Counted from the stretch's first letter, positions 1 to 5,811 are shown. The stretch is DNA of 64,000 nucleotides from Escherichia coli (GCF_044647545.1 NZ_CP172818.1); one strand, 5' to 3'. Notes: generated by a model not told the origin, from the letters alone. Program-made: numbers and translations.

Positions 1-1
1 C

Positions 2-208
2 TCATCGGCCTGTACTGACGCAGTGAATGCGCCGGAATGGCGGTATTACTGGCAGGTCAACATGCCAGCCGCCACCAACACCACCTGGATGACATGTGGC
101 GATCCCTGTGATTCCGCACTGCGTATCTGGGGCGACACCGTTGTCGAGTGCGTGCTTAACAAACTCTGCCCTTCGCATACCTACGTAATTTTTAAATATC
201 CGGAGTAA
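2..208 (+). CDS. C-terminal fragment of a phage tail/baseplate protein, truncated by window edge
   Basis: Open frame running from window start to TAA at 206-208, directly upstream of stfP; position matches the gene preceding stfP in e14; identity not recognised. Confidence 0.35.
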
Positions 209-211
209 TCC

Positions 212-841
212 ATGCATCGTATAGACACGAAAACCGCGCAGAAGGATAAGTTCGGCGCGGGTAAGAACGGTTTTACCCGTGGTAACCCCCAGACCGGCAC
301 ACCTGCCACCGATCTGGATGATGACTACTTTGACATGTTGCAGGAAGAACTTTGTAGCGTGGTGGAGGCCTCCGGTGCCAGCCTGGAGAAAGGGCGGCAT
401 GACCAGATGCTTACCGCACTTCGTGCGCTGCTGTTAAGCCGCAAGAATCCGTTTGGCGATATCAAATCGGATGGCACTGTGCAAACGGCTCTCGAAAACC
501 TTAGTTTAGGAGAAGGAGCAAAACTCAATGCAGCAACGGCTACATTAGGACGCACCGGTTTCATAGCTATACCGGTTATGATTGGTGGTATTGAGCAATC
601 AGTAATCATTCAGTGGGGGTGGAATGCCGCAAAAGCATCTGCCTCTGGGGGGGATGGAAATACAGTTGTATTCCCGGTTGCGTTTAATAATGCCTGTGTT
701 GCCGTTGTTGCAAATTATGACAATGTCAGCGCACCTATCAATGCAGTGGCAACGGGGGGATATACAACCACTTCGTTTTTATTACGGTGCGCAGCTCAAA
801 CGGGTAGTTATTACTATAACTGGATTGCTATTGGGTATTAA
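212..841 (+). CDS. stfP: Side tail fiber protein StfP (constant N-part fused to P-orientation variable part)
   Basis: 209-aa ORF; junction motif NLSLGEGAKL at the pix site; same length as K-12 StfP. Confidence 0.8.
   Translation: MHRIDTKTAQKDKFGAGKNGFTRGNPQTGTPATDLDDDYFDMLQEELCSVVEASGASLEKGRHDQMLTALRALLLSRKNPFGDIKSDGTVQTALENLSLGEGAKLNAATATLGRTGFIAIPVMIGGIEQSVIIQWGWNAAKASASGGDGNTVVFPVAFNNACVAVVANYDNVSAPINAVATGGYTTTSFLLRCAAQTGSYYYNWIAIGY
489..514 (+). other. pixL: Hin/Gin/Cin-type 26-bp inversion crossover site inside stfP
   Basis: ctctcgAAAACCttAGTTTaggagaa; AAACC-NN-GGTTT-like core; inverted relative to site at 2310-2335. Confidence 0.6.
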
Positions 842-842
842 G

Positions 843-1319
843 ATGAAAATATACTGTTGCTTAAATACCGTTGGTTTTTTTATGGATGGCTGTGGCGTCA
901 TTCCGCCAGATTCTAAAGAAATAACGGCAGAACACTGGCAGTCATTATTAAAATCTCAAGCTGAAGGAGGCGTGATCGATTTTTCTGTTTTTCCTCCTTC
1001 TATTAAAGAGGTTATCCGTACTCATGATGATGAAGTCGCAGATGCGAACTTTCAAAAGCAGATGCTTATCTCTGATGCAACTGATTTTATCAATAGCAGA
1101 CAGTGGCAGGGTAAGGCTGCATTGGGAAGACTTAAAGAAGATGAGCTGAAACAATCTGATTTGTGGGCTGGATTATCTGGACGCACTGGCGCTGGTCGAT
1201 ACCGCCAGTGCGCCGGATCTGAATGGCCTACGCCTCCGGCAGTTCAGGCCAGTAAATATCCGGTACAGTGCTGGTATCCGTTGCCATCACCGCGTCAATG
1301 TAATCCAGCACGGCGTTAA
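843..1319 (+). CDS. tfaP: Tail fiber assembly protein TfaP (start uncertain)
   Basis: ATG at 843 immediately after stfP stop; 3' end overlaps convergent tfaE; C-terminal region atypical so exact ends uncertain. Confidence 0.5.
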   Translation: MKIYCCLNTVGFFMDGCGVIPPDSKEITAEHWQSLLKSQAEGGVIDFSVFPPSIKEVIRTHDDEVADANFQKQMLISDATDFINSRQWQGKAALGRLKEDELKQSDLWAGLSGRTGAGRYRQCAGSEWPTPPAVQASKYPVQCWYPLPSPRQCNPARR

Positions 1320-1830
1320 GTCGGGTGTTTTCTGTCTGCGTCAGCTTCCTCCCGGCCTGCAATTTCAGTTGAATCAGACTAATTGAAGCCATTGCAGTAT
1401 CAATCAGTGACTGGCGCTGTGCTTCTGCCGCTTCTATTGCGGCACCGTATTGTGCCTCGGTATCGGTTACCCATTTCTCACCATCCCATTTATCGTATGG
1501 TGTTAACGGAGCGATAGTGGTCATATTTTCAGGGTAATCCCCTGGCGCTGTGATTTCTTTTGGTTCTCCCGTTTCGGTGCTATAAACAATTTCACCGCGA
1601 TGGTCTGGCACATATTTCCACGAGTTCAAATCCGTTGAGCGGCAAATTGCATAACCCGTTTTATGTGTACCAGGTGCATCTAAACAAGAACATGCCGGGA
1701 TACCGACACCGACAGCAAGATATTCGGTTGATGTTGAGATATATTCCTGTGTCCCATTATCATAGTTATAAACGGTAATATCCCCTGCCTTTACCGCGAT
1801 CAGCGCATCATTTAATACAGCTCCACCCAT
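1228..1830 (-). CDS. tfaE: Tail fiber assembly protein TfaE
   Basis: 200-aa ORF with typical Tfa C-terminal region (...VPDIYWPELPEA). Confidence 0.8.
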   Translation of the reverse strand: MGGAVLNDALIAVKAGDITVYNYDNGTQEYISTSTEYLAVGVGIPACSCLDAPGTHKTGYAICRSTDLNSWKYVPDHRGEIVYSTETGEPKEITAPGDYPENMTTIAPLTPYDKWDGEKWVTDTEAQYGAAIEAAEAQRQSLIDTAMASISLIQLKLQAGRKLTQTENTRLNAVLDYIDAVMATDTSTVPDIYWPELPEA

Positions 1831-2330
1831 TATGCAGCCCTCACGATATAATTAAATGAAATATTTCGTGGACGTGATTCGTTACCGAATTTATCTGAAC
1901 CATCAGTATTTCTCGCTGAATATGTTTGGAGGATTGTCCCTGATGATGGATTCGCATTATATTCATTTGTTCCTGCTGGATAGTATGACATTGCACTATT
2001 GTCATCTTTGAAAACAGCAGACATCAATCCATCACCACCACTTCCGTAAGCAGTTGTAAGAAATGACGGTGATCGAAAGAAAGACTATTTTGTGCCGAAA
2101 GTAAGGGAACGACCAGAATCTACCCCGCGCCCATCATCCCAGCCACGAATAAACTCACCACGTAAATCAGGCAATTTATTTGTCGGGTAAGCCTTCGCCA
2201 GTTTTGGATATTCAACGGCAGAAAAAGCCGCACCGTTGCATTTCAGCCAGCCAGTAGGCGGTGTGGCTGAAGGCCACGGAACAGGCACACCAACGGGTAA
2301 TGCCGAACCTTCTCCCAAACCAAGGTTTAT
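1830..2330 (-). pseudogene. stfE: Alternative tail-fiber variable segment StfE, interrupted by in-frame TAG at 2085-2087
   Basis: ORFs 2085..2390 and 1830..2027 are in the same frame, separated by a TAG; junction motif NLGLGEGSAL parallels StfP; an uninterrupted frame would give 166 aa. Confidence 0.6.
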
Positions 2331-2335
2331 GAAAA
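2310..2335 (+). other. pixR: Hin/Gin/Cin-type inversion crossover site just upstream of pin
   Basis: ttctcccAAACCaaGGTTTatgaaaa closely resembles hix/gix/cix consensus; reverse complement matches the 489-514 site core. Confidence 0.7.
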
Positions 2336-2392
2336 TGCGGAATAAGCGGCAAATGGCATCATTCCTGCTTTTGTCAGGGAGAGCTACCATGC

Positions 2393-2941
2393 TTATTGGC
2401 TATGTATGTGTGTCAACAAATGACCGAAACACAAATCTACAGCGTAATGCGCTGAACTGTGCAGGATGCGACTCATTTTTGAAGACAAGATAAGCGGTAC
2501 AAAGTCTGAAAGGCCGGGACTGAAAAAACTGCTCAGGACATTATCGGCAGGTGACACGCTGGTGGTCTGGAAACTGGACCGGCTGGGGCGTAGTATGCGG
2601 CATCTGGTCATTCTGGTTGAGGAGTTGCGCGAACGTGGCGTTAATTTTCGCAGCCTAACAGATGCTATTGATATCAGCACATTCGATGGGGCGTTTTTCT
2701 TTATGTGATGGGGGCCTTGGCTGAAATTGAGCGTGAACTGATTGTTGAACGAACAAAAGCTGGACTGGAAACTGCTCGTGCACAGGGACGAATTGGTGGA
2801 CGTCGTCCCAAACTTACACCAGAACAATGGGCACAAGCTGGACGATTAATTGCAGCAGGAACTCCTCGCCAGAAGGTGGCGATTATCTATGATGTTGGTG
2901 TGTCAACTTTGTATAAGAGGTTTCCTGCAGGGGATAAATAA
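2393..2941 (+). pseudogene. pin: Serine invertase Pin, disrupted by two frameshifts
   Basis: Three consecutive ORF pieces in three frames (MLIGYVCVSTNDR... stop at 2495-2497; ...RLIFEDKISGTKSERPGLKK... stop near 2706-2708; ...MGALAEIERELIVERTKAGL...GDK); together they cover a Gin/Hin-like invertase. Confidence 0.8.
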
Positions 2942-3047
2942 AGTTAAAGACACTTTGTGTACAAAAGAAAGTAAAACAACAGCAACTTGTTGCAATTTTA
3001 TCAATAAAAGTAGTATTGTCGTGAAAAATTGATTAAAGATTAATATT

Positions 3048-3881
3048 ATGCATGTTTTTGATAATAATGGAATTGAACTGAAAGCTGAGTGTTCGATAGG
3101 TGAAGAGGATGGTGTTTATGGTCTAATCCTTGAGTCGTGGGGGCCGGGTGACAGAAACAAAGATTACAATATCGCTCTTGATTATATCATTGAACGGTTG
3201 GTTGATTCTGGTGTATCCCAAGTCGTAGTATATCTGGCGTCATCATCAGTCAGAAAACATATGCATTCTTTGGATGAAAGAAAAATCCATCCTGGTGAAT
3301 ATTTTACTTTGATTGGTAATAGCCCCCGCGATATACGCTTGAAGATGTGTGGTTATCAGGCTTATTTTAGTCGTACGGGGAGAAAGGAAATTCCTTCCGG
3401 CAATAGAACGAAACGAATATTGATAAATGTTCCAGGTATTTATAGTGACAGTTTTTGGGCGTCTATAATACGTGGAGAACTATCAGAGCTTTCACAGCCT
3501 ACAGATGATGAATCGCTTCTGAATATGAGGGTTAGTAAATTAATTAAGAAAACGTTGAGTCAACCCGAGGGCTCCAGGAAACCAGTTGAGGTAGAAAGAC
3601 TACAAAAAGTTTATGTCCGAGACCCGATGGTAAAAGCTTGGATTTTACAGCAAAGTAAAGGTATATGTGAAAACTGTGGTAAAAATGCTCCGTTTTATTT
3701 AAATGATGGAAACCCATATTTGGAAGTACATCATGTAATTCCCCTGTCTTCAGGTGGTGCTGATACAACAGATAACTGTGTTGCCCTTTGTCCGAATTGC
3801 CATAGAGAATTGCACTATAGTAAAAATGCAAAAGAACTAATCGAGATGCTTTACGTTAATATAAACCGATTACAGAAATAA
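3048..3881 (+). CDS. mcrA: 5-methylcytosine-specific restriction endonuclease McrA (HNH)
   Basis: 277-aa ORF with C-terminal HNH motif (CENCG...HHVIPLSSGG...CPNCH). Confidence 0.9.
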   Translation: MHVFDNNGIELKAECSIGEEDGVYGLILESWGPGDRNKDYNIALDYIIERLVDSGVSQVVVYLASSSVRKHMHSLDERKIHPGEYFTLIGNSPRDIRLKMCGYQAYFSRTGRKEIPSGNRTKRILINVPGIYSDSFWASIIRGELSELSQPTDDESLLNMRVSKLIKKTLSQPEGSRKPVEVERLQKVYVRDPMVKAWILQQSKGICENCGKNAPFYLNDGNPYLEVHHVIPLSSGGADTTDNCVALCPNCHRELHYSKNAKELIEMLYVNINRLQK

Positions 3882-4125
3882 AATTATTTATTAAAGTCAC
3901 ATTTAAGACGTAATACCCTACAGGGTAAAAATTTTCTCTGATCTTAACTTCTGCAAATGTTAACTGCTATTTTTATGCTAAAAATGGTTATCAAAACTCA
4001 AAAACACATGTTTATAATCAATGAGTTATAGAAATGCTAAGGGCTAATGAGTTATATGCAAATTAGTAAAATTATGTTGCTATGTCAGATAGTTACGATT
4101 TAGTCATCTAACTAATGTACGCCAT

Positions 4126-4278
4126 ATGGGCTGGACTGAAGCCGCAGACTTGATTGTTAAAGGTATGGAAGGCGCAATCAACGCCAAGACTGTAACCTAT
4201 GACTTCGAACGTCTGATGGAAGGCGCTAAACTGCTGAAATGTTCAGAGTTTGGTGACGCGATCATCAAGAATATGTAA
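4126..4278 (+). pseudogene. icdC: icdC: displaced 3' fragment of isocitrate dehydrogenase at prophage attR
   Basis: Encodes [50 protein letters not shown], the Icd C-terminus, without an upstream body. Confidence 0.85.
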
Positions 4279-4301
4279 TTACTACATGTGTTAAATATTG
4301 T

Positions 4302-4334
4302 AACGGGCGTATAACACGCCCGTTGTTTTATTTA
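4302..4334 (+). terminator. Rho-independent terminator (icd 3' terminator)
   Basis: Hairpin aacgggcgt-ataac-acgcccgtt followed by gttttatttat. Confidence 0.6.
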
Positions 4335-4380
4335 TGTGGGTATTATTAATAGCACATTGAGCATATTTATATGAAGCCCA

Positions 4381-4704
4381 TTACTTGAGCCCATATGGGC
4401 ATATTTTTATAATGCAACTATTATGCAAACATTTATTTGTTATTTTGCTTTCTCCTGGAGGACACTCTTGACTGCTTTTGAGTAAACTCCATAAATCCTT
4501 GTTGAATGGTGCGATGTTATAAATAGTAATAGGATATTCTTTATCCTTAAGGATAATACCAGATTTAACCGGTGTAAATATCCTGCCAGGAGGAAGAAAT
4601 ATAGTGGATTGATACCAGATGATCATTTTCATATCACCCCATATGGCTGAAAAAGATATGCCGCATGTAGGTTGAATTACCGTGTCAATTACTATCCACT
4701 TCAT
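4381..4704 (-). CDS. iraM: Anti-adaptor protein IraM
   Basis: 107-aa [33 protein letters not shown]... recognised as IraM. Confidence 0.9.
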
Positions 4705-5148
4705 TTGTTATGTCTTATCCCACGGTGCTTAATATAGTTCATTTGGATGTTCATTTCTTGATTTTGCATATGTGTATATTACTCCCAAAAAAATAAATTA
4801 ATTAAAAATTAATGTCATTATCTATATAAAACAAAATTTAAAGCAAGGAATCTCAATAGAGATTAAACAAAATGAGATTTAGTGAAAACATTAAATTATT
4901 CACTTCGTTTTAGATTTGTTTAGCTAAAATGTTATACATTCAAATGACTGAATATTCTGTAATTAAAACATAGCCTTTATGCTACTTTGAGCCAATTTGC
5001 TAAACATTATGGTTGGCCTTTTAATATAACGATAATGATGAATATAAGCATGACCTGAGAATAAGGTTTCAATTTTTTAGTTATATAAAAATGGTTAAAC
5101 CCGTTCCTGACTAAAATACATATAATCGGATGATGACTAAACCAAAAC

Positions 5149-5200
5149 ACATGTGCGTTAAGTATTGAAACGGGCGTATGGCACGCCCGTTGGTTTTATA
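5149..5200 (+). repeat. Second copy of the icd-terminator-like hairpin module (direct repeat of 4283-4334)
   Basis: acatgtgcgttaagtattgaaacgggcgtatggcacgcccgttggttttat versus acatgtgttaaatattgtaacgggcgtataacacgcccgttgttttattt. Confidence 0.55.
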
Positions 5201-5406
5201 AATATGTTAACCGTTATAAAATAACGTATAGAAAGTCAAGTGATCACATTTCAAATATTAAGTTGATAGTATTGGCCTGGTGATTATTTATGGGTGGCAA
5301 TAAAAAGACAGTATTTATCATCCATAGGGATAGTCTCTGCACTTTTATTTCCATTATGCTAATGCCTTACTGAATTATGAAGCATTTCTTAAGCTTCCAA
5401 CTTTAG

Positions 5407-5811
5407 CTAGATTAATGGTTTATTGTTTTCTACATCTTCAATATATAAAAGCGTATTATCAATGGCGTAGTAACTGCGTTTGTTATGATTAACATCAGTA
5501 ACCCACCGGAAAACGCCCGCGTCTGCCAGTGTTGAACAGTATTCCCGAAATGTAGATTTTCCGCAAATATGAAGCAATGCGGCCTCTTTTATTTTAGCAG
5601 GGTTCTTGGTCGTACTAACTTTTAACAGGTTCCTGGTTCCTCTTAATAACAAAACCGTGTCATCGTGAGTAATAATTCTGATGTTATCCGTAGCTAGATA
5701 ATAAATGTAATGTGCAATACGGTGATGTTTTAATTCTGAATAAAACCAGGAGAAGTTTTGCTCTTTTCTCACTTGCTCAAACATCTTTTGAAAAACAACG
5801 ACCTGATCCAT
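5407..5811 (-). CDS. ycgX: Uncharacterized protein YcgX
   Basis: 134-aa ORF at the K-12 ycgX position. Confidence 0.8.
   Translation of the reverse strand: MDQVVVFQKMFEQVRKEQNFSWFYSELKHHRIAHYIYYLATDNIRIITHDDTVLLLRGTRNLLKVSTTKNPAKIKEAALLHICGKSTFREYCSTLADAGVFRWVTDVNHNKRSYYAIDNTLLYIEDVENNKPLI

Follow-up and report, generated by a model that had tools for sequence, protein, structure and literature searches.

The closest described relatives of the locus analysed here are the duplications made at the 3' end of icd by the integration of prophage e14 and of phage 21. Hill et al. in 1989 and Wang et al. in 1997 are said to have described how both elements duplicate the icd 3' end into attL and attR, and according to Wang et al. 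(1997) the attP of phage 21 reportedly contains a segment of 209 bases homologous to icd. The e14 duplication is summarised in PMC6379469, as are 'grounded' prophages, i.e. att-flanked remnants without recombinase genes.

The window, i.e. the whole stretch of 64 kb of Escherichia coli DNA that was analysed, is a K-12-type segment in which the gene iraM lies between two direct repeats of the icd terminator module (copies A and B). As in the att duplications of e14 and phage 21, the target gene is icd, the repeats share one orientation and the right-hand limit lies just past a T-run; likewise, the terminator at icd would be the one supplied by the element, with the displaced copy at the far end and the cargo near the att ends. 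Unlike those elements, the iraM element measures 815 bp, holds one gene and is without integrase, excisionase and arm sites. The reading favoured here, with a probability of roughly two in three, is that copies A and B are vestiges of the attL- and attR-type repeats of an old icd-targeting element, of which iraM would be the surviving cargo.

The terminator module repeated around iraM

Positions 1-4119 of the window hold the right end of prophage e14 (tail-fibre genes, pin, mcrA at 3048-3881 and the right att arm), as assigned from open reading frames (ORFs) and the K-12 annotation. It is followed on the + strand by icdC (4120-4282), the native icd 3' end displaced by e14 integration, in which an ORF at 4126-4278 translates to the C-terminus of Icd, and by copy A (4283-4334, + strand), the icd terminator module with its hairpin at 4302-4324 and a T-run. 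A spacer of 46 nt (4335-4380), specific to the small-island allele, separates copy A from the stop codon of iraM (4381-4704, - strand), which was identified from the RefSeq annotation of relatives and encodes an anti-adaptor of RssB belonging to a phage accessory-gene family. The iraM upstream region (4705-5148, - strand) has a GC content of 0.26 and includes the small ORF ymgK (4963-5007, - strand). Copy B (5149-5200, + strand), a truncated second icd 3' module with its hairpin at 5169-5191, adjoins a right flank (5201-5811, - strand) that is common to iraM-plus and iraM-less genomes. This flank comprises ymgL (5244-5354, - strand), directly to the right of copy B, and ycgX (5407-5811, - strand), which encodes a DUF1398 phage-family protein (PHROG 413, Pfam DUF1398); according to ORFs and the RefSeq annotation of near-identical genomes, bluR and bluF come next. 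Within the 815 bp between the copies the only ORFs are iraM and small ones. The original prediction placed iraM in an AT-rich island bracketed by the repeats. The GC content between the copies is indeed 0.30, but low values continue beyond copy B through ymgL (0.31) and ycgX (0.37), so that the repeats do not bound a compositional island.

A repeat search returned a direct repeat of 43 nt at 4287-4329 and 5154-5196, with 86% identity and a start spacing of 867 bp. In the gapped local alignment of 4284-4331 with 5149-5199, 44 of 51 positions match, with four mismatches and three gap positions; the score was 64, whereas shuffled copies searched against the rest of the window scored 23.8 on average (standard deviation 2.1) and 33 at most. 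Both repeats are in + orientation and bracket iraM. Each consists of the hairpin AACGGGCGT-N5-ACGCCCGTT, with identical stems, preceded by about 19 nt of similar sequence (ACATGTG..GTTAA.TATTG.A, 16 of 19 positions shared) and followed by GTTTTAT (7 of 7). Since the similarity includes flanks outside the stem, it is not a generic hairpin resemblance, and the pairwise alignment bears out the proposal that a module of about 50 bp at 4283-4334 recurs at 5149-5200 with iraM in between.

The hairpin pattern AACGGGCGTNNNNNACGCCCGTT has exactly two matches in the 64-kb window with three mismatches allowed, where 0.03 are expected by chance. Per genome, the module occurs at a median of two and at most five places, those inspected being icd, icd fragments and the iraM locus. 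Although both copies have the shape of ordinary intrinsic terminators, an accidental resemblance of two generic GC-rich terminator hairpins is refuted by the identical stems, the matching flanks, the alignment score and the confinement of the module to icd-related places, and is given virtually no weight. A dispersed intergenic repeat family (REP/BIME, ERIC) was likewise ruled out, with few copies per genome and two in the window, and a word-7 search of the window yielded no third, older copy to the right of copy B. The possibility of an integron gene cassette with an attC site was also rejected, on the shape of the hairpin and the gene content: the hairpin, with its perfect GC-rich stem of 9 bp and its T-run, is a terminator, no integrase gene is nearby, and other genera have icd terminators homologous to the module. 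No Rfam family matched the module above threshold; a sub-threshold match to the sRNA family tpke11 over copy A (4283-4353; 26.4 bits against a gathering threshold of 43, E = 0.012) probably reflects terminator resemblance only.

The terminator scan made a terminator-like call on the + strand for both copies, whose folding energies are -19.2 and -17.1 kcal/mol, and both fold stably on both strands. Copy A is the element that terminates icd in place, whereas copy B, as judged from its sequence, may be a putative terminator or insulator between ymgL-ycgX and iraM. These properties are also those expected if the terminator had been copied locally in tandem, iraM had been inserted between the copies and both had been kept for insulation, with A ending icd and iraM and B ending ymgL-ycgX. 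In K-12-type alleles the stem of copy B is perfectly preserved, the differences between A and B being confined to the loop and the flanks, and the structure of the hairpin is conserved across elements through compensatory changes. However, on the - strand no T-run follows either hairpin and the terminator scan made no call for either, and no + strand gene lies upstream of copy B. Such a functional duplication would moreover leave unexplained the phage junctions at the repeat end and the icd remnant of the clade I allele (both described below), and it is considered distinctly improbable.

Attachment-site homology at icd and the relation to e14

Copy A is the distal end of a longer homology. The 212 bp at 4120-4331, i.e. 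the last 159 bp of icd plus the module, match the icd ends of other genomes, with the BLAST homology starting at 4120, and this segment of about 212 bp is carried and duplicated by e14-like and phage-21-like elements. The module of copy A is therefore the non-coding end of the icd segment duplicated by e14, and the claim that iraM lies at the same recombination hotspot that e14 uses is literally true. K-12 has an alternative icd 3' end on the e14 side of icd; the module after it, GTTAAATTTATTAACGGGAGCGTAACGCTCCCGTTGTTTT, is homologous and shows compensatory changes in the stem. The same arrangement together with the arm CTAACGGTTATCAAAATTTTATCAAAA adjoins icd in Citrobacter, Pluralibacter, Tenebrionibacter, Enterobacter, Mixta and Yokenella; in phage-21-like prophages, in which int and xis come right after icd, an A-type module is followed by TTCCCCAAAAC repeats. 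Across the module versions two of the nine stem pairs carry changes on both sides with pairing kept, which fits a conserved terminator.

When K-12 attL, K-12 attR and uninterrupted icd were aligned, attL was of the element type and attR of the native type along the whole homology. This places the crossover at the left edge of the homology and makes the hairpin its distal, passenger end. After the T-run of the hairpin, four sequences diverge within about 3 nt of one point: GTTTT is followed by TTGTTAGG in e14-like elements, GTTTTAT by GATGATG in phage-21-like elements and by TTATGTGG at the left junction of the iraM island, and GTTTTTAT by AAATATG in the native flank. For the spacer at 4335-4380 no counterpart was found in the clade I allele, where homology begins at 4377, or in the phage arms.

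In the K-12 annotation e14 occupies 1196209-1211412, and iraM of K-12 lies about 100 bp from its annotated right end. In the paper on IraL, iraM was stated to be on the e14 prophage (PMC4045071); were it simply a part of e14, the repeats would be the att sites of e14 itself. However, attR of e14 consists of icdC and copy A, and iraM lies to the right of it. Most E. coli genomes, furthermore, carry an intact icd followed by copy A, iraM and copy B without e14. The published statement is therefore not correct with regard to iraM, and the assignment of iraM to e14 is refuted, retaining hardly any weight. A remnant of the e14 right arm to the left of copy B was also considered: the 12-nt exact repeat TAAAAATGGTTA (3979 and 5086) was not significant, 47 of 300 shuffles scoring as high.

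Regarding other taxa, at least eight genera of Enterobacterales have e14-like elements with the near-invariant arm CTAACGGTTATCAAAATTTTATCAAAA at the 3' end of icd. The hairpin of these elements is of the E. coli type in some cases and of the e14 type in others, implying that sequence has been exchanged within the att homology. A scan of contigs with the hairpin pattern, made for outgroups, returned mostly attL ends of e14-like or phage-21-like elements, with E. albertii and a divergent Escherichia carrying a large deletion among them, instead of native empty sites. The cluster listings for K-12-type IraM and YcgX comprise E. coli and Shigella only. BluR orthologues were followed towards the outgroup context, but the bluR cluster of Citrobacter freundii lies away from icd.

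Several single loci show further traffic at this site. A divergent Escherichia (L006, NZ_JAATUR010000009.1, labelled E. coli SCPM-O-B-8794; icd 95.5% identical to that of K-12) has an e14-like left end at icd, followed about 1.6 kb later by sequence corresponding to window position 9915 onward, the interval from iraM to ymgC being deleted. An E. coli-type icd end (97-100% identity) with an e14-like arm occurs in a metagenome-assembled genome labelled Sporosarcina psychrophila (L013, DYWT01000019.1), probably as a result of contamination or mis-binning. In Tenebrionibacter intestinalis an e14-like element lies at the 3' end of icd, and a distant IraM homologue (L009:3078-3407; 31% identity, E = 1e-18) is encoded about 7 kb upstream of icd. 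In O157:H7 (strain 86-24, L056; also L028), icd is followed by phage-21-type int and xis, a truncated replication gene, ren, emrE and ybcK, of which ren, emrE and ybcK are DLP12-type genes; this position lacks iraM, copy B, ymgL and ycgX. The O55:H7 strain RM12579 retains the iraM island.

Empty sites and the cryptic clade I allele

The region 4100-5420 was compared by megablast with 5426 complete E. coli genomes. The whole region was present in 3861 genomes, and the small iraM island in 3883. In a second class, 434 bp stood in place of 1301 bp; these sites are shorter by exactly 867 bp, the spacing of the repeats. A query representing the empty-site junction was covered in 1037 of the 5426 genomes. 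A single copy thus marks the empty site in genomes lacking iraM, the point to be checked under the original prediction. In strains ZH193 and A24 the order is icd end, one module with an A-type loop, the right flank of copy B, ymgL and ycgX, the surroundings being otherwise colinear; the right side of copy B is contiguous with the flank seen at the empty site. The sampled iraM-less examples ATCC 11775, LF82, NRG 857C, NC101, ZH193 and APEC O1 are all known B2 strains. No genome with both copies but without iraM was seen in this survey, which was non-exhaustive.

The single copy at empty sites was A-like (AA loop) and never B-like among the 5426 genomes, and a synthetic empty site with the B-type GG loop yielded no match above 98.1% among them. 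With the A-type loop present at every empty site, nothing points to repeated deletions in which the crossover fell to the left of the loop.

The K-12 haplotype of 4100-5420 is rare, with at least 99% identity in 83 of 5431 matching records and 90-95% identity in 4893; compared with the common allele, the K-12 island is about 7% different and its flanks are 1.5-4% different. Insertions of IS1 in or beside the island have given rise to secondary deletions (L003:3773-4470 and L029:2630-3327). One IS1-deletion genome kept copy A and iraM and lost the interval from copy B to ymgC, and another kept copy A with 34 nt of the island and lost iraM through ymgA.

A longer allele of the island was found via IraM homologues at 74% identity (loci L042 and L047-L055). 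Primers specific for Escherichia cryptic clade I, directed at a marker gene of 1368 bp, have been published (Okuno et al. 2023, PMC10100065); in the same paper, clade I and E. coli sensu stricto are placed as sister lineages. Both primers match exactly inside the gene for a protein of 455 aa (1368 bp) in all eight loci checked (L047, L048 and L050-L055), which identifies the island as the allele of cryptic clade I. It is present in 19 complete genomes, measures 6.3 kb from the icd stop codon to copy B and corresponds to window positions 4332-5158 (L055:1501-7880; also in L047-L054 and L042). The order of features is rluE, icd, a hairpin with an e14-type arm, the 455-aa gene, a transposase fragment, trkG, an iraM variant, a ymgB-like gene, a second hairpin, ymgL, ycgX and bluR. 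The clade I marker island (PMC10100065) resembles the iraM island in occupying the same icd-ycgX interval and in containing an iraM variant and copy B; it differs from the K-12 island in its length, its e14-type arm, trkG, the ymgB-like gene and IS fragments, the sequences being either 72-81% identical or unrelated.

No integrase was found in the clade I island, the contents of which are a gene of unknown function, trkG, iraM, the ymgB-like gene and transposase fragments. The protein of 455 aa matched no defence system and no Pfam family significantly. The trkG gene is about 90% identical to the trkG of other E. coli genomes. At L055:6406-7225 (window 4705-4733 for comparison), the conserved promoter region and iraM are separated by a gene of the YmgB/AriR family (86 aa), which is oriented like iraM and together with it looks like a two-gene operon; K-12-type genomes are without this stretch of about 450 bp, and their promoter region abuts iraM.

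The clade I allele is informative with regard to copy B, which is preceded there by ATCAAGAATATGT(T)AA, i.e. the last codons of icd (13 nt exact, up to 19 nt with one gap), giving a match of 66 nt to window 4264-4329 (E = 1e-10 to 6e-9). Copy B of K-12 is preceded by 0 nt of icd coding sequence and keeps about 50 bp of the homology of about 210 bp; upstream of copy B, no icd homology was detected beyond these 13-19 nt in either K-12 or clade I. The icd coding remnant indicates that copy B derives from a longer duplicate of the icd 3' end, of the attR type. A fragment resembling an IS3-family transposase lies between the iraM upstream region of clade I and the icd remnant, and could explain how the remainder of the displaced icd fragment was lost. 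At its left end, the clade I island carries TTATCAAAA repeats, an arm type identical to that of e14 attL, whereas no arm-type repeats were found in the K-12-type island (4335-4380). Since the clade I island may have arisen when an e14-like element inserted later beside an older small island, its e14-type arm is no proof that iraM travelled on an e14-like element.

The nucleotide identity between K-12 and clade I is 96% in the 5' part of icd, 81% in iraM, 72% in the iraM upstream region, 51-63% in the ymgL region, 79-87% in the 3' half of ycgX and 93-100% from about 5690 rightwards; within the upstream region, two stretches (4733-5077 and 5094-5148) show homology to the clade I allele, with 72-75% identity. 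With iraM and its right-hand neighbours comparably divergent and in the same order in the sister lineage, the order iraM-copy B-ymgL-ycgX is suggested to be old. The island alleles, at 72-81% identity, are far below the genome average of the two lineages, and horizontal replacement by recombination may account for this.

These data bear on a gain of iraM without any integrase, in which iraM and one module would have entered a single-copy site by homologous or microhomology recombination within the 50-bp module, e.g. as a donor circle, the B2 state being the ancestral empty site. An indel of exactly one repeat unit is what such a gain would produce, the A-type loop at all empty sites with the B-type at none of the 5426 genomes fits a single ancestral state, and the small island is without integrase or arm sites. 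A terminator-only cassette does not predict, however, that copy B of clade I reaches into the icd coding sequence. The presence of the order iraM-B-ymgL-ycgX in the sister lineage too, with comparable divergence of iraM (81%) and the 3' half of ycgX (79-87%), also speaks against it, as does the fact that iraL and the phage homologues of iraM carry no module and have only the coding sequence in common. A local cassette gain is accordingly regarded as unlikely, and the duplication is better described as a vestigial pair of attL/attR type than as a terminator cassette.

Under the att-remnant reading, the B2 state would be somewhat more probably a loss, through recombination or slippage between A and B to the right of the loop, than a site that was never occupied. 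With an A-like copy at the empty sites, a never-occupied site requires that copy B mutated after the duplication; with clade I as a sister group that has iraM, one loss of 867 bp in B2 is somewhat more parsimonious than two independent gains.

iraM as probable phage-family cargo at an attachment site

IraM of K-12 matches PHROG 4407 over its full length (E = 4.5e-51), YcgX matches PHROG 413 (E = 1.3e-41) and TrkG matches PHROG 1916. Relatives of IraM with 55-71% identity are encoded between stx and the lysis cassette of Stx2 phages, beside the Q antiterminator in lambdoid prophages of E. albertii, and in IS-rich islands. A search for flanks common to iraM and to iraL or the phage homologues showed that homology is limited to the coding sequence, with no module attached. 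PHROG 413, the ycgX family, is annotated as head protein. As ycgX encodes a phage-family protein, the 'native' flank may itself be still older prophage debris.

In the scenario preferred here, an e14-like or phage-21-like element carrying about 210 bp of the icd 3' end and the terminator hairpin in its attP would have integrated with a crossover at the 5' edge of the icd homology. A crossover at this edge gives icd a 3' end and a terminator supplied by the element (the position of copy A), and the displaced native icd 3' end with its terminator (the position of copy B) would have come to lie past the element, joined to ymgL-ycgX. Decay would then have removed the integrase and the arm sites, and all but a small part of the icd fragment that had been displaced, so that E. 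coli sensu stricto would retain iraM with the promoter region and some 50 bp of copy B. In the K-12 lineage, e14 would have integrated later at the reconstituted icd, and the present order of e14, icdC with copy A, iraM remnant and copy B would be a tandem accretion. The proposal that iraM entered or was rearranged by recombination at the icd 3' end gains support from the pairwise alignment, the 867-bp empty site and the att homology.

Several observations weigh on the other side. No integrase, excisionase or arm-type repeat was found within the 815 bp between the copies. The left junction and the point where the att homology ends are no more than about 3 nt apart, and 46 nt of unmatched sequence follow; a random decay deletion ending at that junction would not be expected. 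The case for a longer duplicate consists of 13-19 nt in one other lineage, clade I. A very remote alternative is that the 50-bp hairpin module is itself the substrate of recombination, single-gene units being moved by a recombinase that recognises the hairpin or terminator or by hairpin-stimulated template switching; if this were true, the 867-bp polymorphism would represent a minimal cassette system that is still active, not a fossil.

Compared with tandem accretion and with cis-mobilizable elements, an att-remnant at iraM would show the same picture of an older, decayed, att-flanked remnant beside a newer element, here e14. Unlike in cis-mobilizable elements, the crossover core (at the left edge, near 4120) is missing at copy B, so that mobilisation in trans by the integrase of e14 or phage 21 would not be expected. 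A further parallel is provided by iraL, which lies on a genomic island in strain CFT073 (PMC4045071), and by the IraM homologues of Stx2 phages ('morons'): these belong to the same family and share with iraM the AT-rich single-gene unit, the location on mobile (or formerly mobile) DNA and the variable presence. Those phage homologues sit between the Q antiterminator or stx and the lysis genes, whereas iraM sits at an att site. An att-flanked prophage remnant produced by repeated use of one site is an ordinary kind of scar, apparently undescribed for iraM.

The findings place iraM, which encodes a well-studied regulator of RpoS stability, outside e14 and would make it a remnant of elements that used the icd attachment site earlier. 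They provide a structural account, in the form of one repeat unit, for the absence of iraM from about a fifth of E. coli genomes, and the repeat pair predicts a simple deletion junction detectable by PCR. The diagnostic marker of cryptic clade I, too, lies on an island in the same att-scarred interval. On the att-remnant reading, the iraM locus would be a natural case of the fixation of cargo while the phage disappears.
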